From NCBI GenBank assembly GCA_021775005.1, contig JAJFIK010000009.1:6616-70615 (forward strand): a stretch of DNA of 64,000 bases. Reading direction: 5' to 3'. Source of the DNA: Rhodospirillales bacterium (lineage in GTDB: Bacteria; Pseudomonadota; Alphaproteobacteria; JAJFIK01). The notes beneath the pieces are model-generated. The model made no database searches, was not told where the DNA came from, and saw only the letters and a program-made list of their open reading frames with translations. The position numbers and the translations under genes are program-made. Of this stretch, positions 11,430-57,791 are shown one piece after another; the stretch's first letter is position 1; every line of letters begins with the position of its first letter.

Positions 11430-11532
11430 CGTCATCCCGGAAATCGCGCCAGCGATTGTCCGGGATCTTGCACCACGTGAGGGGCTCTGAGATTCCGGGC
11501 TCCTCGCGTCCCGCGACGCCCCGGAATGACGG
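11430..11532. mobile_element. MITE-like element copy A (TIR cgtcatcccgg ... ccggaatgacgg, two internal hairpins)
   Basis: Near-identical architecture to copies at 35717..35813 and 42375..42468. Confidence 0.6.
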
Positions 11533-35665: not shown

Positions 35666-35716
35666 AATCAGTCGGCTTGGCTGCGGTGTTGTGAAAGCCC
35701 TCCGCCCTCTCAATAA

Positions 35717-35813
35717 CGTCATCCCGGGGCGGCAACGCCAAATCCGGGATCTTGCGATACATATCGCCGTTCGAGATTCCGGGCTCCTCGGATTACGCGG
35801 CCCCGGCATGACG
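35717..35813. mobile_element. MITE-like element copy B (TIR cgtcatcccgg ... ccggcatgacg)
   Basis: Same bipartite hairpin architecture (atcccgg..ccgggat ; gagattccgggc..gccccgg) as copies A and C. Sits in the coaE-dnaQ intergenic region. Confidence 0.6.
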
Positions 35814-39881: not shown

Positions 39882-40444
39882 TGCGCCGCAAGGGTCGCCC
39901 ATTGCACGGCGAAGAACGCAGCCTCTGGAACCACGTGGCGCGGACCGTCAATCCGCGACATCCTAATGTGCGCCCTGCCCAAGATGATGCCTTGCCGCTA
40001 GCTCACAACAAAGCACAGCCGCACAAGCCAGTGCTCACTTCAAAACCGGCACTGCTGAAATCAACCCCCGCCCGCCCTGCCCCGCAATTACATATTGATG
40101 GTGCCACCGCGCGCCGCCTCAAACGCGGGCAAGCGCAGATCGATGCAAAGCTTGATCTGCATGGCATGCGCCAAACAGAAGCTCATGATGCGCTGGTGAG
40201 TTTTATCCTGGGGGCGCAAGCCCGCGGCGCACGCTGCGTGCTTGTCATCACTGGCAAAGGCACAAAGGGCGCCGGGCATTCCAACCCTTACGAGACGCCG
40301 GGCCCGGGTATTTTGAAATCCCGGCTCGGGCAATGGCTCGCGCAAGCTCCCCTGAGCGCCATCACATATGGATTGCGCAAAGCCCACCCGCGCCACGGCG
40401 GCTCCGGCGCGCATTACGTCTTTATACGGAAGATCAAAGGTTAG
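39881..40444 (+). CDS. Smr domain protein
   Basis: LDLHGMRQTEAHDAL...VLVITGKG Smr/MutS2 C-terminal nuclease-like domain. Confidence 0.7.
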   Translation: MRRKGRPLHGEERSLWNHVARTVNPRHPNVRPAQDDALPLAHNKAQPHKPVLTSKPALLKSTPARPAPQLHIDGATARRLKRGQAQIDAKLDLHGMRQTEAHDALVSFILGAQARGARCVLVITGKGTKGAGHSNPYETPGPGILKSRLGQWLAQAPLSAITYGLRKAHPRHGGSGAHYVFIRKIKG

Positions 40445-42317
40445 GTGCCACATGCAAACGGGCCCCGCTGCTTGGGGCGGCCCGTTTTTTGTTTTCAGGA
40501 ACCGCTGCGCCCGCCCCCGGCTGTGCGTTGGGAATGCGCGCCATGATGCAGCCCTTGAACTGGAAGGTGCCCTTTTTGCCAGCGCGCTTTGGCGATCCTC
40601 CGCCCCTCCAGGCGTCGGCGCTCCACATTGAATTGGTGCCGGTATGGGATTTGCGTTGGGCGTCAACGGCGACGTCCTTCAGCGCTTTCTGAACGGTCGC
40701 ATCACCAATAAGCTCTGCATGTTCATTGCGGGCGAGATAGGCCCTGAGCTCGATGAACGCCCGCTCGCCTTCATCGCGGCTGCGCGGCGGCAGCACCTGC
40801 ACCATTGTTGCGTCCACGTCGGTTGCGCCGAGCAACTTGCTTAGAAGCGGATAAATGGACGTCTCCCCCTTGGGAGGCGTCAGCACGATAAACGACCGGT
40901 AGGGGCTGAGCAGCCGACGCAGGCCAGTTTCTGCGTCAACGGCAAACAGATGATCCATCGCCGCCCGGACGCAGGTTGTCGCCTCAACCATCATGGCGCG
41001 GCGCTCAGGGGGCAGATCGGTGTAAGGCGCAGGGTCGCGGAAGACGGGGAACCATTCAAACGGGGCGGCGCCCCAGAACCCGTCCCGATAGCTTCGCTGG
41101 TTCAGCAACCGGACAATGGCCTCCAAATCCGGCAGTTTCAGCTTTTCAGTTTTCTTGAGCTTCTCGCGGTCCTTCTTAGGAGCCTTGTTCAAGGCAGCCT
41201 TTTGTTCGTCTTTCAAGGCAGCCATGAATTCCCGAATAAGGGCGCCGGCGAAAAAGTATCTGTCGCTTTTAAGCAGACCATCACGCTTTGCAGCAGCTTC
41301 CCGTCCGCGCAGCTTGGCGCATTCGCTCAGAGCTTTAAAAGTGGCCCTGTCTTTGATGTCATTGAACTGGCCGGTCTGTTTGGCAATCTGCAGAAAAATG
41401 TATCGCGCAGCGGCTTTGTCGACGTCTTTTGGCTTTTGTGCCTTGCGCGACAAAAGCAGATAGCGCGTCAGGTTCCCTTCGCCATAATCCTGAATGCCGC
41501 GCACGAGGCGTGCGTCGGTTGCCGGGGTGTTGGAGCCGTGATCGGCCCCTGCCCGTTCCGCCTCTGCCTCCGCGTCTTCGTTGTCGGCTTCAGCGTTGGG
41601 AAGTTGCGCTGCGGATGTCTTACGCACCGCGCCGCCGACGCGGACGAGATCGAACATGCGTGCCGAATAGGCCGAGCCGATGGCCGCCACCTTTAGCGAA
41701 TAGGGTGGGTTCATCACCTCGACATTCAGCTCGTCGGTTTCCGTCTTGATGCTCTTTGCCGCCGCCGCCGTGCAGGTCATGGTCACGCGCCGGGCATTGG
41801 GCATGGTGCGGGAAATGAAATCGGCGCACTGGCGCAGGCCCTGATCGTCTGAGCGGATTTCCGAAATCGCGCTCAGGATCGCTTCCTGCTTCTCGGGCGC
41901 GCCATCAAGGCGATCCTGAATCGCCAGGAGCTCGAGTTCTTCGTCTGGCCGGAACACCCCAAAGCGTTGTGCCAGCGATTTGGTGACCAGCACATGGTGC
42001 TCGACCTGCTGATAGACATCGTCAATCACATGCACGCCGTTTTGGGCGATCAGCGACAGTGGCTCCACTACCATGCCGGTCCGGTTGTTATGGACGGCAA
42101 CCACTGCGGCGTCAGCGCGGCCTTCGGTCAGAAGCTCAAACACTTCCTCATAGGTGGGCTGCGGTGCAGGCTTGTACTTGGAGGCAAATTCCGTCCGCTG
42201 GGTCACGGCAAAGCCGCACGCGCCCTGTTCTCCCTGGCAGGCAAGGTACTCCGTTGCTCTGTCTGCAGGTTCAGCCATGGCCGGTTCGGGTGCCTCGCAT
42301 CGACGTGGTAAATTCAT
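40434..42317 (-). CDS. Prephenate-dehydratase (PDT)-domain protein fused to ~380-aa uncharacterised Lys/Arg-rich C-terminal region
   Basis: N-terminal ~250 aa align to the PheA PDT fold (YLACQGEQGACGF ~ VAYQGxPGAYSE; AAVVAVHNNRTGMVVEPL ~ GVVPIENSxxGxV). No ACT domain. An acidic linker is followed by an unknown domain. Flanked by a MITE copy upstream. Confidence 0.55.
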   Translation of the reverse strand: MNLPRRCEAPEPAMAEPADRATEYLACQGEQGACGFAVTQRTEFASKYKPAPQPTYEEVFELLTEGRADAAVVAVHNNRTGMVVEPLSLIAQNGVHVIDDVYQQVEHHVLVTKSLAQRFGVFRPDEELELLAIQDRLDGAPEKQEAILSAISEIRSDDQGLRQCADFISRTMPNARRVTMTCTAAAAKSIKTETDELNVEVMNPPYSLKVAAIGSAYSARMFDLVRVGGAVRKTSAAQLPNAEADNEDAEAEAERAGADHGSNTPATDARLVRGIQDYGEGNLTRYLLLSRKAQKPKDVDKAAARYIFLQIAKQTGQFNDIKDRATFKALSECAKLRGREAAAKRDGLLKSDRYFFAGALIREFMAALKDEQKAALNKAPKKDREKLKKTEKLKLPDLEAIVRLLNQRSYRDGFWGAAPFEWFPVFRDPAPYTDLPPERRAMMVEATTCVRAAMDHLFAVDAETGLRRLLSPYRSFIVLTPPKGETSIYPLLSKLLGATDVDATMVQVLPPRSRDEGERAFIELRAYLARNEHAELIGDATVQKALKDVAVDAQRKSHTGTNSMWSADAWRGGGSPKRAGKKGTFQFKGCIMARIPNAQPGAGAAVPENKKRAAPSSGARLHVAPNL

Positions 42318-42374
42318 CTATATGATACACCCAATTTCGCAGGGGAGTCCAGAAACCACGAGTGCTTGCCAACT

Positions 42375-42468
42375 GTCATCCCGGAAATCGCGGCAGCGAT
42401 TTCCGGGATCTCACGGCGTAGGTTCTTGTTGGAGATCCCGGGCGCCCGGCGGTGCCCCGGGATGACGG
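42375..42468. mobile_element. MITE-like element copy C (TIR tgtcatcccgg ... ccgggatgacgg)
   Basis: Best-conserved copy. Both internal hairpins are nearly perfect. Confidence 0.6.
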
Positions 42469-42477
42469 GCATTGGGG

Positions 42478-43782
42478 TCAGAGCACGTAGCGAGACAAAT
42501 CCGCGTTTTTGGCTAGATCGCCAATATGACTGTCAACATATGCTGCATCCACGGTGATCGCCTCCCCGCCCTGATCGGTGGCGGAAAAGCTGATCTCATC
42601 CAGCACCCGCTCCAGCACCGTGTGAAGCCGCCGGGCGCCGATGTTTTCCACGCTGGCGTTCACGTCCGCGGCAATGTCAGCAATGGCGTCCACGCCATCA
42701 GGGGTGAACGTGAGCGTCAGCCCTTCGGTGCCCATCAAGGCCTCATATTGGCGGATCAGGCTCGCCTCGGGTTCGGTGAGGATGCGGACAAAGTCATCGC
42801 GGGTCAGCGCCTGCAGCTCCACCCGAATGGGCAGACGGCCCTGCAATTCCGGCAGCAGGTCTGAAGGTTTGGCGATATGGAAGGCACCGGACGCAATAAA
42901 GAGGATATGGTCGGTCTTCACCGGGCCATGTTTGGTGGGCACCGTGGAGCCCTCAATAAGCGGCAGCAGGTCCCGCTGGACCCCTTCGCGGGAGACGTCA
43001 GCGCCCCGCGCGTCAGATCTGGCAGTTATCTTGTCAATTTCATCCAAGAAAACGATACCGTCATTCTCCGCTATTTCGATGGCCTCGCGGACGAGTGCGT
43101 CTTCGTCAAGTAACTTGTCAGATTCCTCTGCCACTAAAGGCTCATAGGCGTCTTTGACAAACAACTTGCGCTTTTTCGTCCTGCGGCCCCCTTGCCCCAG
43201 TAGGTCCCCCAGATTCAGCATGCCCACTTGGGATCCGGGCATGCCAGGGATCTCAAGCCCCCCCAATGGGCTGGAGGTATCGGCCACATCGATCTCAATT
43301 TCCTTGATATCGAGCTCTCCGGCCCGAAGCTTGGTGCGGAAGCTATCCCGCGTGCCGGCGCTGGCGGTGGGCCCTACCAGGGCATCAAGCACGCGTTCTT
43401 CGGCGGCGGATTCAGCGGCCGCTTGCACCGCTTTGCGCTTCTTGGTGCGGGTCAGGCCAATGGAGATCTCGATGAGATCACGGATGATCTGCTCTACGTC
43501 GCGGCCCACATAGCCCACTTCGGTGAATTTGGTCGCTTCCACCTTGAGAAACGGGGCCCCGGCGAGCCGCGCCAGGCGGCGCGATATCTCGGTTTTTCCC
43601 ACCCCGGTCGGGCCGATCATAAGGATATTTTTCGGCAATACTTCCTCGCGCAGATCTTCAGGCAGCTGTTGCCGCCGCCAGCGGTTGCGCAAAGCGATAG
43701 CAACAGCGCGTTTGGCATCGCCTTGGCCAATAATGAAGCGATCGAGCTCGGAAACGATCTCGCGAGGGGAAAAATCTGACAT
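42478..43782 (-). CDS. hslU: ATP-dependent protease ATPase subunit HslU
   Basis: 434 aa, Walker A GPTGVGKT. Confidence 0.97.
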
Positions 43783-43786
43783 CTGG

Positions 43787-44335
43787 TTAGGAACTCAACT
43801 TCTCTAAAGTGACGGAATCATTGGTGTAAACGCATATTTCAGCGGCAATGGCCATGGCTTTGCGGGCAATGGCTTCGGCGTCCATATCGGTTTCCATGAG
43901 CGCGCGGGCCGCCGCCAAGGCATAGGTGCCGCCGGAGCCGATCCCCGCCACACCGCTTTCGGGTTCCAAAACATCGCCGGTTCCGGTGAGAACTAGGGAT
44001 GTTTTCGCATCCGCAACGATCATCATGGCCTCCAGGCGGCGGAGGTATCTATCTGTGCGCCAATCCTTGGCCAGCTCCACACAAGCGCGCAACAGCTGGC
44101 CCGGGTGCTGCTCCAGCCGGCCCTCAAGGCGCTCAAAAAGCGTAAAGGCATCCGCCGTGGCGCCGGCAAATCCGGTAATCACTTTGCCGCCGGAGCCGAT
44201 GGGCCGCACTTTCTGGGCCGTGGCTTTGATCACCGTCTGCCCCAGGGTGACCTGGCCGTCGCCAGCGACCACCACCATACCGCCCTTGCGCACAGTGAGG
44301 ATGGTTGTGCCGTGCATTACGGGAGCATCTGTCAT
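43787..44335 (-). CDS. hslV: ATP-dependent protease subunit HslV
   Basis: N-terminal TTIL(T)VR Thr-protease start. Confidence 0.95.
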
Positions 44336-45154: not shown

Positions 45155-45171
45155 CGGTCGTGGAGTGCCAT

Positions 45172-46038
45172 ATGCGCAAGGATCTGATTTCCGAGTTACA
45201 TCGAAGATTTGAAGATGTTTCCAGCCACCTTAGTGGCACTTCTGGGGAGACGGTTGAATGCTGGACCGCCCGAGATATTCAACCCCTTCTTGGGTATGAT
45301 ACGTGGCGGCGCTTTCACGACGTTATCGTGAAAGCAATGCGCGCCTGCGAACAGTCTGGCCATGAGATTGGAGACCATTTTGTCGACGTCGGCAAAATGG
45401 TCAGTTTGGGGTCCGGAGCGGAACGAGAAGTTCCCGATATCCTTTTAAGCCGTTATGCCTGCTATCTCATTGCTCAAAACGGCGATTCCAAAAAGGAACC
45501 CGTAGCATTTGCGCAAACCTATTTTGCACTGCAAACGAGAAAACAGGAGCTAATTGAAGAGCGGCTGGCGGACGCAGAGCGCCTCGAAGCTCGAGACAAG
45601 TTAAAGAGAACTGAAAAGGAGCTGAGTGGGGCACTCTACCAGAGAGGTATCGACCAAAGGGGGTTTGCCATCATTCGCAGTAAGGGTGACATGGCACTAT
45701 TTGGCGGTCGCACCACAGCGGACATGAAGTATCGCCTCGGAATTGCCAAAACCCGCGCCTTAGCCGACTTTTTGCCGACCGTTACTATCAAGGCCAAGGA
45801 TTTGGCTGCCGAAATGACCAACCACACTGTTCGCACACAAAATTTGCATGGCCAATCACCAATCGCGGCTGAACATGTAAGAAGCAATACTAATGTTAGG
45901 GCTGCGCTCAACAAAAGTGCCATATATCCAGAAAATCTCCCGGCGGCTGAAGATGCCAAGAAACTGGAGCGCCGCGTTCAAAAAGAAGAAATTGAGCTCG
46001 CCAAGCGCGCCGAAGACGCCAAACTAAGAGGTCGCTGA
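45172..46038 (+). CDS. dinD: DNA-damage-inducible protein D (DinD family), low GC
   Basis: ...WTARDIQPLLGYDTWRRFHDVI...VDVGKMVSLGSGAEREVPDILLSRYACYLIAQNGD... aligns closely to E. coli DinD. Preceded by a LexA box. Confidence 0.7.
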   Translation: MRKDLISELHRRFEDVSSHLSGTSGETVECWTARDIQPLLGYDTWRRFHDVIVKAMRACEQSGHEIGDHFVDVGKMVSLGSGAEREVPDILLSRYACYLIAQNGDSKKEPVAFAQTYFALQTRKQELIEERLADAERLEARDKLKRTEKELSGALYQRGIDQRGFAIIRSKGDMALFGGRTTADMKYRLGIAKTRALADFLPTVTIKAKDLAAEMTNHTVRTQNLHGQSPIAAEHVRSNTNVRAALNKSAIYPENLPAAEDAKKLERRVQKEEIELAKRAEDAKLRGR

Positions 46039-52692: not shown

Positions 52693-53274
52693 TTAGCTCA
52701 TTCGCTGATTTGTTGACATCAGCACCCAGCGCCCAATAACGAGCACAACGGCGCCAGCACATATGATCGTTGAAACAATATTGGCGGGCCCGATGGGCAA
52801 GGTGAGCCACGCACCCGCATAGCCGATCCCGGCAACAACAAAGGTCCATCCTGAAAAGCGCTGCAGAGATTGAATGGCGGCCGGGGAGTGGCGTTTCTCA
52901 AGCATGGGCTCCAGCCGTTTGGGCATGAAGTTGCCGATGATCACTAGCACCAGCCCAACCCCAACACCGTAAGCGCGGCGCACCACATCACCGCCTGCGC
53001 TGCCAAGAAGGCCGGCTGCCTCTGCGGCGCTGAACCCCAGCGTTAGGGTAAGAAGGCTTGCAGCCAAAACGGCCGAGCCGCGAATTTCATTGAGGCCCTT
53101 GCGGCCGCGCAACAAGACCTCAAAGGCCCCCCAGGCGACAGGCAGGAACAATCCAGATATTGCCCATGTCATGGCGTCTTCTGGGTCGAGTGCCCAATTT
53201 GTCGTCGCCAATCCAGCCACAAGCGCAGCCCCCGCCAGCGGAAAGGCGAGAGGTATGGTGCGGGTTTCGGTCAT
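52693..53274 (-). CDS. SdpI/YhfL-family immunity-like membrane protein (copy 2)
   Basis: Start at MTETRT. GNFMPKRL...QRFSGWTFVVAG matches SdpI N-x-x-(G/P)-x-R ... (H/Q)R-x-x-G-W motifs. Paralog of the upstream gene. Confidence 0.55.
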   Translation of the reverse strand: MTETRTIPLAFPLAGAALVAGLATTNWALDPEDAMTWAISGLFLPVAWGAFEVLLRGRKGLNEIRGSAVLAASLLTLTLGFSAAEAAGLLGSAGGDVVRRAYGVGVGLVLVIIGNFMPKRLEPMLEKRHSPAAIQSLQRFSGWTFVVAGIGYAGAWLTLPIGPANIVSTIICAGAVVLVIGRWVLMSTNQRMS

Positions 53275-53302
53275 ATGGTTTTCCTTTCCTGGCGCGGGCT
53301 GA

Positions 53303-53866
53303 TTAGCGCGGCCTGCGCGCAAGGGCGCGGCGGGCCAAAACCAATCCAGAAGCAATGAGGGCCAAGGCGGTTGCAACAATATTGGCAGGCACAGTTGGCA
53401 AGATGAGCCATGCGGCGATGTAGCCGAGCCCGGCCAGCACAAATGCCCATCCAGTGAAGCGGTGCACGGCTTGAACGCGCACGGGGTCGAACTCCGCGTC
53501 ATCAAGGGGCGGAAGCCGTTTGGGGATGTAATTGCCCATGAAGATCAAAACGCCGCCCATAAGCAGCCCCAGCGCATTGCTTGCCAAGGTTCGGGCCTGT
53601 CCGTCGTATAGGTCGATTGATATGCCAATCGTGAAGAGCAACGGGAAGGCGAGCATGAAACTGGCAAAGAAGATCGAGCGGCGCACTTCATCCGAAGGCG
53701 CGTTACGCAATCCCTCAAGCACACCCCAGGCGATAGGAAGCATCACGGCAACGCCCGTCCACACAAACCAAAGCTCACGTTCCAAAAGCCAAACCGTTAG
53801 CGCCAACCCCGCCACCAGCGCATTGGCGCTCATGGGGTAGACCGCGCGCATCACTTTATCGCTCAT
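53303..53866 (-). CDS. SdpI/YhfL-family immunity-like membrane protein (copy 1)
   Basis: GNYIPKRL...VHRFTGWAFVLAG. Immediately downstream of an ArsR/SdpR-like regulator. Confidence 0.6.
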   Translation of the reverse strand: MSDKVMRAVYPMSANALVAGLALTVWLLERELWFVWTGVAVMLPIAWGVLEGLRNAPSDEVRRSIFFASFMLAFPLLFTIGISIDLYDGQARTLASNALGLLMGGVLIFMGNYIPKRLPPLDDAEFDPVRVQAVHRFTGWAFVLAGLGYIAAWLILPTVPANIVATALALIASGLVLARRALARRPR

Positions 53867-54350: not shown

Positions 54351-54437
54351 GCCTCGGTGGCGAAATTGGCAGACGCACCGAACTCCTAATTCGGCGATCA
54401 GTTGATCATGCGGGTTCGATCCCCGCTCGGGGCACCA
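54351..54437 (+). tRNA. Class-II (long variable arm) tRNA with tRNA-Leu-like D-arm and anticodon loop CUCCUAA (anticodon CCU, Arg AGG)
   Basis: Hand-folded. 7-bp acceptor (2 GU pairs), U8, 3-bp D stem with 11-nt D loop AAAUUGGCAGA, 5-bp anticodon stem ccgaa/ttcgg, 15-nt variable arm with gatc/gatc hairpin, T arm GCGGG-TTCGATC-CCCGC, A73, encoded CCA. Confidence 0.6.
54388..54409 (+). repeat. Direct repeat 1 (aattcggcgatcagttgatcat) inside tRNA (anticodon-stem 3' half plus variable arm)
   Basis: Identical 22-mer recurs at 55021..55042. Confidence 0.6.
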
Positions 54438-55006: not shown

Positions 55007-55020
55007 CAGCGCCAAACTAC

Positions 55021-55042
55021 AAATTCGGCGATCAGTTGATCA
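55021..55042 (+). repeat. Direct repeat 2 (aattcggcgatcagttgatcat), candidate att remnant
   Basis: Exact copy of the tRNA segment 54388..54409. Followed by an AT-rich tract 55043..55270. Confidence 0.6.
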
Positions 55043-55268
55043 TACTATCGGATCAGCATTGACAATCTAGGTCAACCACATTTTGACGCAGTGATTAACC
55101 AATTGAAATATCACAGTTTTCGCATTGATAGAAAGAATGCGTGCCTACAAAATTGCCAACTATCTAGGTGTCACTAGCGCTATTCAGCGCGGTGCCGCCC
55201 CAACAATTCAGGCGCAATCCTTTGTTCATTCAAAACGGCTGAAGTCTAGGGATTTTGGACAGAAAAGA

Positions 55269-55727: not shown

Positions 55728-56216
55728 TCAATCGACATCGCGCAGAGTCTCCTTTTGGCCTTCCTCAAACAGGTGATCGATGAAGGCGCGCACATCTGTC
55801 CGGAACGTGTGGCGAACCCGCTGCCACCACTCCAATGCGCCCTTGCGCACCGTCACGGGGCGGGCGTTGAGGGGAAGCTGCTTCCAATCTTCCTCGGGCA
55901 TTTGCTTTGCCCTGTGCTGCTCATAAATGTCCATCATGGACGCGGCCCATTGAGACAAATACGCGCCATAGGCAACACGCTCTTCTGCATCCAGATTCGC
56001 AAGGCCATCGACGCCCTTCACCCAGACGCGCCGGAGGTCGGGGTTTTCAAGAAGGTAGGCCTGGCTGCGCACACCAAGCGCATTGCGTTCGCCGATGCGG
56101 CGCAGCGCTTGCTCTTTGGTATTTGCGCGCACCTGAAACGCGAGATAGATCAGAGAAATGATAACGGCGATGCCGCCAAACACTTCGGCGTAGTTGGCAA
56201 GTTGATCAATAGGCAT
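55728..56216 (-). CDS. Single-pass membrane protein, tandem paralog P1
   Basis: Starts MPIDQLANYAEVFGGIAVIISLIYLAFQVRANTKEQ (TM anchor), then a divergent Trp-containing soluble domain. Confidence 0.55.
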   Translation of the reverse strand: MPIDQLANYAEVFGGIAVIISLIYLAFQVRANTKEQALRRIGERNALGVRSQAYLLENPDLRRVWVKGVDGLANLDAEERVAYGAYLSQWAASMMDIYEQHRAKQMPEEDWKQLPLNARPVTVRKGALEWWQRVRHTFRTDVRAFIDHLFEEGQKETLRDVD

Positions 56217-56736
56217 GATTCTCAATTCCTTTTCGGCCCTCGCCGCCGGCAACAAGATATCCCTTGCCCTTGCTCGAACTAAGCAAGTCGCTGACAAGTG
56301 CTTGGGTTGACGGTACGAAAAACACCTTCATCCCCGTCAACTCCCACCAATGGCGCCCGCCAACAGAACCAAGCACTGAATAGATCATCCGCTCAAGTGC
56401 CGCACGATCTTCCGCTGTTGCGTTTCCCGCGCGCCGCATTTTGTCCATCAATTCAAGAACCCGCACAGCCTTTGTCATCACGTTGTTGAACCGAAATTTG
56501 TCAGGGTCTGAAAGGGCCGTGTAGTCCGCAGTTCCGGTGACAAGCACCTCCGGCATTGTGCTGGCGTCGGTAAAGGGGTCAGAGAGCGACATAAGCAATT
56601 CATAGGCTTCTTGATCCCGGCGGCGTTTTTGCTCGCGCGTATTGTCCCGCACTTGAAACCCCAGGAAAATCAACGTGACAATGACAGCTCCGCCGCCAAA
56701 TATCTCCGCGTAATTTGCAAGCACATCAATCGACAT
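56206..56736 (-). CDS. Single-pass membrane protein, tandem paralog P2
   Basis: Starts MSIDVLANYAEIFGGGAVIVTLIFLGFQVRDNTREQ. Overlaps P1 start and P3 stop by ~11 nt. Confidence 0.55.
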   Translation of the reverse strand: MSIDVLANYAEIFGGGAVIVTLIFLGFQVRDNTREQKRRRDQEAYELLMSLSDPFTDASTMPEVLVTGTADYTALSDPDKFRFNNVMTKAVRVLELMDKMRRAGNATAEDRAALERMIYSVLGSVGGRHWWELTGMKVFFVPSTQALVSDLLSSSKGKGYLVAGGEGRKGIENHAY

Positions 56737-57241
56737 GGACACTCCTGGACGTTGGGGGGTTGACGCCCTGCGCTTCAAGCTCTGCCACCACCTGATCAAC
56801 GCGTTCGCGCACACGATCCGACGCAAGGGCCTTGTCGGCAAAATTACTCCACCAATACCGAATGTCGGGATAGTTGAACCCGCCAATCATATACCGGTCG
56901 AACCGCGCCAGCTCATCGGCGGTGATTGAGCCGTCTTCATGCATCCCAATAATCATATCAAAGGCATGAAAAACTTTGAGATACATGTTCGTAAATCTGA
57001 TCCGCTCGGCTTCGGTCAGATTGTTATAATCGCGCGCTGCTTTGACGAATGTCTCAGACAGGTTGGCAGGGCCAGACATAAAGTCATAAATCGTGTTTTG
57101 AATTTCAAAGCTTTCAAAGCGACGTTGATGGCGTTGCTCGCGTGTATTGGCGCGGACCTGAAAGGCCAAGTAAATCAGCGAAACGATAACTGCCGCACCG
57201 CCAAACACCTCTGCATAATTTGCAAGTTGATCAATCGGCAC
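56726..57241 (-). CDS. Single-pass membrane protein, tandem paralog P3
   Basis: Starts MPIDQLANYAEVFGGAAVIVSLIYLAFQVRANTREQ. Shares NLTEAERIRF and RYWWSNF blocks with P4. Confidence 0.55.
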   Translation of the reverse strand: MPIDQLANYAEVFGGAAVIVSLIYLAFQVRANTREQRHQRRFESFEIQNTIYDFMSGPANLSETFVKAARDYNNLTEAERIRFTNMYLKVFHAFDMIIGMHEDGSITADELARFDRYMIGGFNYPDIRYWWSNFADKALASDRVRERVDQVVAELEAQGVNPPTSRSVHVD

Positions 57242-57725
57242 TCGCGGCTTCCTCCCGGTCCCGCTCCACTATCAGGCGATCAATATGGGTTCGCACACGT
57301 GGCACAACCCGCTTGGCAAAGTCCATGTTGTTCCACCAATAACGTGAGCCTGTGGTCATCATAGTTCCAAGAATGAACTGCTCAAAGCTTTCATAGGTGT
57401 CCTGGTCGATGCTGCCTTCTTTACGCATTTGCATCACCAGATCAAAGGCGTGGCACATCTTCACCATCATAATGCCGAATCTGATCCGCTCCTCATCATT
57501 GAGCACGGCGTAATCCTCAGCGGCCTTCATAAAAATTCGCGTCGTCTCGGACCCGTCGACAATGTTGTTGAAGATTGAATTCTGAATCTCAAACAAGTCA
57601 TAGCGCAAGCGGTGGAGCTGCTCGCGCGTGTTGGCGCGCACTTGGAACGCCAAATAAATCAGCGAGACGATAACCGCCGCGCCGCCAAAAACCTCAGCGT
57701 AATTTGAAAGCGTATCAATCGGCAT
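57231..57725 (-). CDS. Single-pass membrane protein, tandem paralog P4 (first gene of operon)
   Basis: Starts MPIDTLSNYAEVFGGAAVIVSLIYLAFQVRANTREQ. Overlaps P3 start by 11 nt. Confidence 0.55.
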   Translation of the reverse strand: MPIDTLSNYAEVFGGAAVIVSLIYLAFQVRANTREQLHRLRYDLFEIQNSIFNNIVDGSETTRIFMKAAEDYAVLNDEERIRFGIMMVKMCHAFDLVMQMRKEGSIDQDTYESFEQFILGTMMTTGSRYWWNNMDFAKRVVPRVRTHIDRLIVERDREEAASAD

Positions 57726-57791
57726 GAAAGCCCCGCGCAATTTTCCAAGCGCTGAGATTAGGCGGGGGTTCGCAACGTGTCTAGGCGGGCG

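Follow-up and report, generated by a model that had tools for sequence, protein, structure and literature searches.

A divergent prephenate dehydratase-family protein encoded after hslVU in a Rhodospirillales bacterium, with a basic helical insert ahead of a predicted ACT-like domain

Gene X and the prephenate dehydratase domain of its product

The DNA considered here is a 64,000-nucleotide stretch of contig JAJFIK010000009.1 (positions 6,616 to 70,615; assembly GCA_021775005.1, Rhodospirillales bacterium), which we call the window, and the subject is a gene lying downstream of the protease genes hslV and hslU, called gene X below, whose product belongs to the prephenate dehydratase (PDT) family. 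The original prediction, made from the letters alone, described an open reading frame (ORF) of 627 codons at 40434..42317 on the minus strand, in which a PDT fold is joined to a long stretch with no domain recognizable by sequence. Both the frame and that general description are borne out, and the base composition of 40434..42317 is ordinary, with a GC content of 0.55-0.63 as in the flanks. The first ATG of the frame, at 42317, reads ACG in the closest orthologue, found at locus L001, and in the alignment M14 is the invariant first residue in 5/5 homologues. Because all five homologues begin there and the upstream ATG is ACG in L001, the true start is probably M14 (42278), with the first 13 codons untranslated. 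Gene X would then occupy 40434..42278 on the minus strand, stop codon included, and encode 614 amino acids (aa) from M14, the maximal ORF reaching 42317. Residue numbers in this text follow the 627-codon ORF.

The five homologues, P0001 to P0005, come from different assemblies and are colinear with the X protein over its whole length, at identities of 85% for P0001, 41-46% for P0002 and P0003, and 33-35% for P0004 and P0005. The codon-level comparison of the window gene with its 85%-identical orthologue in L001 gives an overall ratio of nonsynonymous to synonymous substitution rates (Ka/Ks) of 0.15. Taken by segment, the ratio is 0.03 for the PDT main part (residues 14-235), 0.30 for an acidic insertion (236-272), 0.09 for a helical insert (293-468), 0.16 for an ACT-like core (469-545), 0.76 for a loop (546-585), and 0.57 for the C-terminal tail (602-627). 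The original prediction had itself raised the possibility that the long ORF is really two genes run together by an unnoticed sequencing frameshift, to which a pseudogene read-through can be added. We consider such an artefact exceedingly improbable. It would draw something from the final 22 codons of X, which overlap the terminator of the convergent neighbor smr, and from the poor conservation of the tail, but this unconstrained look is confined to the final ~26 residues. Five independent homologues extend colinearly over the PDT, insert, and ACT-like parts, and Ka/Ks stays within 0.03-0.16 in all three of these structured parts, which excludes a fusion of two genes by frameshift. Judged by this comparison, gene X is one real gene.

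The PDT catalytic domain comprises residues ~21-292 (41442..42257, minus strand), as delimited by Pfam PF00800 and by sequence matches to the PDTs 6vh5, 2qmx, and 7alz of the Protein Data Bank (PDB). PF00800 matches residues 26-223 with E = 1.3 × 10−22 and a score of 80.9 bits, where the gathering threshold is 25.2, covering positions 2-155 of 181 in the profile. The match stops at position 155 because a 37-residue acidic segment interrupts the domain, and the remaining end of the profile corresponds to residues 275-292, past that segment. There the last strand of the PDT domain, which bears the catalytic motif IQDYGEGNLTRY (275-286), aligns to VEDSENNVTRF of Brucella 6vh5. The acidic segment (residues 236-272; 41502..41612, minus strand) has an isoelectric point (pI) of 4.05 and a predicted local distance difference test (pLDDT) score <50 in the structure models described below. 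It contains the stretch AEADNEDAEAEAERA, which had been read as a poly-acidic linker between two domains, with the PDT fold ending at ~250 aa. The stretch is present as described, but since the last PDT strand with its catalytic motif lies after it, it has to be an insertion inside the PDT domain, and the domain runs on well past the end proposed for it. The insertion is clade-specific, being mostly opposite a gap in P0002-P0005, and its acidic AEADNED… core is found only in the window and in P0001. More generally, the PDT domain of X carries extra segments in comparison with canonical PDTs.

The TRF triad is critical for PDT catalysis, and GALV and ESRP are regulatory motifs of the ACT domain (PMC13217925). 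The counterpart of the triad in X is T284-R285-Y286 (41460..41468, minus strand), aligned to NVTRF of 6vh5; these three residues are invariant in the family, and N282-x-T284-R285-Y286 matches NxTRF. The segment A-C-Q-G-E-x-G-A (Q28-G29-E30-x-G32-A33), counterpart of the canonical AxQGxxGA, is invariant in the six sequences, as are N77, which is the N of ENS, and S156…Q163-C164, the counterpart of SHPQALxQC, all three being aligned to both 6vh5 and 2qmx. By these alignments, the PDT motifs known to matter for catalysis are all invariant across the family. Residues 14-235 are 97% identical to P0001, and the PDT domain is 54-63% identical in comparisons with P0002-P0005. The Ka/Ks of the PDT part indicates stronger purifying selection than on hslU, for which the ratio is 0.08, and nothing else in the 13 kb compared with L001 is as well conserved as the PDT part.

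The basic insert and the predicted ACT-like domain

Between the PDT domain and the ACT-like domain lies a basic all-helical insert of ~175 aa (residues 293-468; 40914..41441, minus strand). The original prediction treated what follows its supposed linker as a basic, uncharacterized region of ~330 aa. The basic character is confirmed, with a pI of 9.9 and 17.6% K+R for residues 293-627, and the stretch KKDREKLKKTEKLK that it pointed out is present at 41136-41177 (minus strand), where it spans a 14-residue clade-specific insertion (AALNKAPKKDREKL) in the helical insert. What shrinks is the part without a domain match, which comes down to the ~175 aa of 293-468. The insert is found in all six members at 157-176 aa, with a pI of 8.9-9.7 in each. 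Two AlphaFold2 models, one of the full length and one of the C-terminal part, were built from the 6-sequence family alignment, and they place seven helices across 296-457, to which the C-terminal model gives pLDDT values that reach 94. The sequence of the insert is 86% identical to that of P0001 and 13-26% identical to those of P0002-P0005; the Ka/Ks given above shows purifying selection acting on it among close relatives.

After residue 292, Pfam searches at E ≤ 10 on all six members gave nothing credible, and PDB profile searches of the C-terminal half returned one non-significant chance match, to a ribosomal protein at E = 0.38. The insert itself has no Pfam, PDB-sequence, or hhalign match, and no solved structure matching it appears among the top Foldseek PDB matches. 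A HMMER profile of the C-terminal part run exhaustively against 1.84 billion representatives retrieved family members only, plus P0006, which is rejected as a relative since it is the translation of a tandem repeat, with nine chance matches to "LLGCFLAR". A C-terminal half shared with other protein families is rejected on the same search, which gave no outside relative. We also considered whether the insert might be an AroQ chorismate mutase (CM) and rejected this, with an hhalign probability of 0.07% (against the CM domain of the E. coli P-protein), no Pfam CM_2 match, and no CM in the Foldseek top 50.

Residues ~469-601 (40515..40913, minus strand) are assigned as an ACT-like regulatory domain by AlphaFold2 and Foldseek. 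Both models give the βαββαβ order that is the ACT topology, with pLDDT of about 70-82, the elements being β1 473-480, α1 489-496, β2 503-509, β3 519-524, α2 540-549, and, after a disordered loop at 555-582, β4 583-592 (…TFQFKGCIMAR). The C-terminal model has a mean pLDDT of 68. The mean for the full-length model is 56, the PDT part being poorly modelled and residues 290-550 scoring mostly 60-85 per 10-residue block. When the full model is compared with the PDB by Foldseek, the top matches are the PDT-ACT crystal structures 2qmx, 6vh5, GqqA 7am0, and 3mwb, over about 580-600 columns with target-normalised template modelling (TM) scores of 0.49-0.56, of which 2qmx and 6vh5 have 0.53-0.56. Alignments of 580-600 columns mean that the matches reach from the PDT at the N terminus as far as the ACT at the C terminus and bridge the insert. 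The C-terminal model alone finds as its top match the ACT domain of phenylalanine hydroxylase (PAH), 5jk8, with probability 0.99 and 22-23% identity over 79 columns. It also matches the ACT domains of homoserine dehydrogenase, formyltetrahydrofolate deformylase, aspartate kinase, IlvN, and phosphoglycerate dehydrogenase, and the ACT part of the PDT 2qmx with probability 0.95. Going by the modelled fold, residues ~469-601 are very probably an ACT domain.

The original prediction had stated that there is no ACT regulatory domain, and the βαββαβ fold, the Foldseek matches to ACT domains, and the end-to-end alignment with PDT-ACT structures speak against that statement. It had also allowed that the C-terminal part might match a known domain, and this turns out to hold by fold, for ACT, and not by sequence. 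The nearest thing to a sequence match is an hhalign comparison with the ACT domain of E. coli PheA, in which the last strand alone is aligned, FKGCIMAR with KVLGCYPS, at a weak E = 0.016. Identity over the ACT core is 26-51% in comparisons with P0002-P0005. GALV and ESRP are absent, and their positions hold …(T/P/K)SI(Y/H)… and Q(V/I)LP, in a register that is read from the model and is not a confident alignment; I488, Q507, L509, and P510 do not vary among the members. The ACT-like domain does not stand directly behind the PDT domain in any of the six members, the ~175 helical residues (293-468) intervening in all. It is followed by the C-terminal tail (residues 602-627; 40437..40514, minus strand), which has 46% identity to P0001 and pLDDT <50 and is probably disordered, on the models.

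Neighborhood, promoter-like block, and distribution of the family

The upstream neighbors of X on the same strand are hslU (42478-43782, minus) and, before it, hslV (43787-44335, minus). The upstream side of X is visible in the window, L001, L002, L003, L005, and L007, and X directly follows hslV-hslU on the same strand in 6/6 of them, with hslU-X spacers of 97-242 bp. The gene had been described as lying outside the conserved synteny, and on the contrary nothing in the context of the family is better conserved than its place after hslU. Beyond X, a convergent smr-mltA-tim44 group is found in 4/6 of the loci with the downstream side visible (the window, L001, L003, and L006); in L002 and L007, the downstream neighbors are replaced and the hslU-X adjacency is kept. 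X and the convergent smr overlap by 11 bp in the window, and the same overlap measures 23 bp in L001, 11 bp in L006, and 4 bp in L003. A hairpin with a T-run, resembling an intrinsic terminator for smr, lies at 40459..40497 on the plus strand, inside the last ~22 codons of X, where the terminator scan matches 40465-40481 followed by TTTTTTG.

Just upstream of the coding sequence there is a conserved promoter-like block, TTCTGGAC…TATCAT…TAGATGAATTTACC, at 42305..42355 on the minus strand. Its consensus is TTCTGGAC(T/C)C-N17-TAT(C/A)(A/G)T-ATAGA(C/T)GAATT(T/A)ACC, and it can also be read as TTCTGGACNC-N17-TATCRT-ATAGAYGAATTWACC, ~55 nt of non-coding sequence. This conserved TCGTATAGACGA block includes a σ70-like TGGACT-18-TATCAT; the motif TAGAYGAATTWACC has a single occurrence in the window. 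It is kept in L001 (946-1000), L006 (148-200), and L007 (1056-1110), is looser in L003 and L005, and is reduced in L002 to the TTCTGGAC box alone. Loci whose X proteins share only 41-46% identity are >80% identical in this block. It also holds an imperfect dyad, TCGT-ATAG-ACGA, both halves of which are changed together in the window, to TCAT…ATGA. The conservation of the block and the dyad with its paired changes suggest that X has an independent, regulated promoter, as opposed to simple read-through from hslVU, and the block may be the operator for a regulator. A σ54 or EcfG promoter was tried as a reading of the block and rejected, as the spacing does not fit by eye. For a structured RNA, leader, or riboswitch upstream of X, Rfam at gathering thresholds gave only a distant tRNA.

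The space from the hslU stop codon to the promoter-like block holds a palindromic repeat of ~92 bp resembling a miniature inverted-repeat transposable element (MITE), at 42375..42466 with no strand assigned. Inverted repeats of 10 bp, GTCATCCCGG/CCGGGATGAC, form its ends, three hairpins lie inside, and its RNA fold z-score is -5.0. There are three copies in the window, all in intergenic spacers, the other two (~95 bp, terminal repeats GTCATCCCGG…CCGGNATGAC) being at ~11431-11530 and ~35715-35812. The orthologous hslU-X spacer in L001 is without the element, which makes it a genome-specific insertion; the alignment with this empty site has no clear target-site duplication visible. The coaE-dnaQ spacer of L001, at 60 bp, is too short for a copy. 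X had been called MITE-flanked, and this is right for the upstream side, where one copy lies directly before the gene, and wrong for the downstream side, where X overlaps smr and there is none.

The constancy of the position after hslU brings up the question of whether X is functionally tied to the HslVU protease, for example as a co-transcribed third gene of the operon whose product is a substrate, an adaptor, or a stress-linked metabolic switch. That the adjacency is found in every locus where it can be seen, L002 and L007 with their replaced smr-mltA side included, is what recommends this idea. Weighing on the other side are the spacers of 97-242 bp, the family-conserved promoter-like block standing just before X, and the toleration of a MITE-like element between hslU and X in the window genome. 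The region is also strongly syntenic in general, so the adjacency may reflect one ancestral insertion, and no sequence feature connects X with HslU. We regard a tie of this kind as very unlikely.

Several other features of the window deserve mention. Adjoining hslV there is a gene for a Bro-N domain protein (45160-46038, plus strand) that strongly matches the phage family phrog_8036 (E = 1.6 × 10−80). L002 and L003 carry hisB and hisH at that position, L002 having the full hisB-H-A-F-E run, and the site may be a phage-derived insertion or a rearrangement. A tRNA-Arg(CCT) gene at 54351-54437 has a 35-nt direct repeat of its 3' part, 89% identical, 634 bp later at 55009-55043. This pair brackets a 170-aa ORF with a weak winged-helix match and has the appearance of a scar left at the attachment site when a small element integrated. 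Beside the tRNA-Arg gene are repeats of ~107 nt, four of them every ~500 bp at 56109-57724 (within 55728-57740, minus strand) and a further pair at 52769 and 53370 (within 52693-53505), which correspond to tandem paralogous ORFs of ~170-225 aa with no Pfam match. For X itself, an origin in a defense system or a phage was considered and rejected, there being no PADLOC matches and a sole PHROG match, to a PheA-like profile at E = 2 × 10−4.

The family of X is tiny. It is represented by five proteins among 5.8 billion clusters, by three representative clusters among 1.84 billion, by one locus in 185,579 species-representative genomes ("Alphaproteobacteria bacterium OFTM99"), and by one additional locus in a scan of metagenome contigs, which amounts to six or seven lineages across the cluster, representative, and two contig collections. 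Its conservation is also uneven, as the comparison of 40434-43782 in the window with L001 1-2854 brings out. Between the window and L001, amino acid identity is 97% for the PDT part, 90% for HslU, and 70-72% for MltA, Smr, and AroE, and the nucleotide identity of the PDT part is 0.90-0.93. The synonymous rate Ks is 0.46-0.90 for the segments of X, with the PDT part at 0.46, versus 0.83-1.4 for the neighbors, of which mltA, smr, and aroE have 1.2-1.4. Against the distant loci L006, L007, and L003, the pattern is reversed, with X at 33-46%, MltA at 57-63%, and HslU at 81-89%. Because X is closer than its neighbors in the one comparison and more distant in the other, these sequences suggest either that the two closest lineages exchanged X and its promoter through recombination, or that the rate shifted sharply between subclades.

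Function of gene X and comparison with known enzymes

PDT-ACT enzymes are a textbook example of allosteric feedback control, and normally their catalytic domain has the ACT domain packed right against it. On balance, we think that X is probably a clade-specific, highly divergent PheA-type prephenate or arogenate (cyclohexadienyl) dehydratase, so that, of what the original prediction offered, the idea of a PheA that has gained a new module still fits best. Such an enzyme would still turn prephenate or arogenate towards phenylalanine, and its feedback control would be expected to differ from that of textbook PheA, since the GALV and ESRP motifs of the phenylalanine site are replaced by family-conserved residues.

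A number of observations weigh against this assignment. The best NCBIfam matches of X are the prephenate dehydratase equivalogs PRK11899 (NF008866) and PRK11898 (NF008865), and the scores are 61.9 where the cut-off is 359 for the former and 58.7 where it is 219 for the latter. X thus belongs to the PDT family, but the NCBI criterion does not class it as an ordinary PheA. The ENS motif appears as HNN or HNS in 5/6 members, and the F of the TRF triad is replaced by Y, conservatively, in the form of the invariant Y286. Work by Zhang et al. in 2000 is said to have found the E of ENS not to be an essential residue. On the regulatory side, no ACT family was found at E ≤ 10 in any of the six members, and no ACT protein of the PDB by profile. 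The Foldseek E-values for the isolated ACT-like domain are 0.018 or worse, and the assignment depends on medium-confidence models from a shallow 6-sequence alignment. If a canonical pheA is present elsewhere in these genomes, a different role for X becomes more likely. Finally, GqqA, an alphaproteobacterial PDT-ACT homologue, failed to complement E. coli pheA mutants (PMC4879726).

The last two points lead to the main alternative, a neofunctionalised PDT paralogue, with canonical pheA kept elsewhere and the cleft and ACT-like domain of X serving another substrate or ligand. It would then resemble the GqqA-type homologues or the non-aromatising prephenate decarboxylases, and its basic module would bind nucleic acid, a membrane, or a partner. 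The great distance from the canonical equivalog models would fit this, as would the loss of the GALV and ESRP effector motifs in favor of residues conserved within the family, the retention of a basic pI in the insert, the small number of lineages, and the complementation failure of GqqA as a precedent. Opposed to it is the finding that the residues whose mutation cripples PDT catalysis are all invariant, and that the PDT part is the best-conserved portion of the whole comparison with L001, as would suit an enzyme essential for biosynthesis. The 64-kb window holds no second PDT gene, which for the whole genome is weak evidence. We hold the paralogue to be rather unlikely, and continue with X as a divergent PheA-type dehydratase.

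For that enzyme, the displacement of the ACT domain by the insert and the loss of the canonical phenylalanine-site motifs lead us to expect altered regulation or assembly. The insert may alter communication of the ACT domain with the catalytic cleft, or the assembly of subunits. Its length, helicity, and basic charge are kept and its sequence is not, so it would be a structural or spacer-interaction module and not a second catalytic domain. The acidic loop, the KKDREKLKK stretch, the 546-585 loop, and the C-terminal tail appear to be fast-evolving decorations. A bolder proposal is that the insert is a previously undescribed regulatory or interaction domain which rewires phenylalanine allostery or gives the enzyme an additional function, for instance in binding nucleic acid or a partner, with a possible connection to HslVU and to the operator-like block. 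If that were true, X would be a PDT of a new type, regulated or moonlighting, beyond a decorated PheA, but we find it distinctly unlikely. X adds a new architecture to a known enzyme family and is not categorically new.

The significance of such a variant is that it could reveal how regulation through the ACT domain copes with large insertions or makes use of them, and that metabolic engineering could gain from it a dehydratase insensitive to feedback. In annotation, it indicates that profile-based calls of a "PDT domain without ACT" can be false negatives. Practical importance is limited by the narrow distribution, in a handful of uncultured alphaproteobacterial lineages.

Among known systems, the best match in both sequence and fold is to the monofunctional PheA of alphaproteobacteria (~280 aa; Brucella 6vh5, PRK11899), which shares with X the order of PDT then ACT and the motifs QGxxGA, N of ENS, S…QC, and TR[F/Y]. 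X differs from it in being ~330 residues longer, with the ~175-aa basic helical module between PDT and ACT, and in having extra PDT segments, no GALV or ESRP, an equivalog score below the cut-off, and a position after hslU. The L-Phe-inhibited PDT of Chlorobium tepidum, 2qmx, is the top Foldseek match to the full-length X model, over 589 columns, but identity is 11-17%, 2qmx is without the insert, and the effector motifs are not common to both. GqqA of Komagataeibacter europaeus (7alz/7am0) is a PDT-ACT protein that matches the X family profile at E = 7 × 10−5, and also matches by fold; it is reported as a quorum-quenching protein and offers an example of a PDT homologue whose role is non-canonical. 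It has, however, an ordinary 281-aa architecture with no insert, and nothing seen in X points to acylase activity. The ACT domain of phenylalanine hydroxylase (5jk8), the best Foldseek match to the isolated C-terminal model, is likewise a phenylalanine-sensing ACT, but it belongs to another enzyme context, at E = 0.018 and with no support from sequence profiles.

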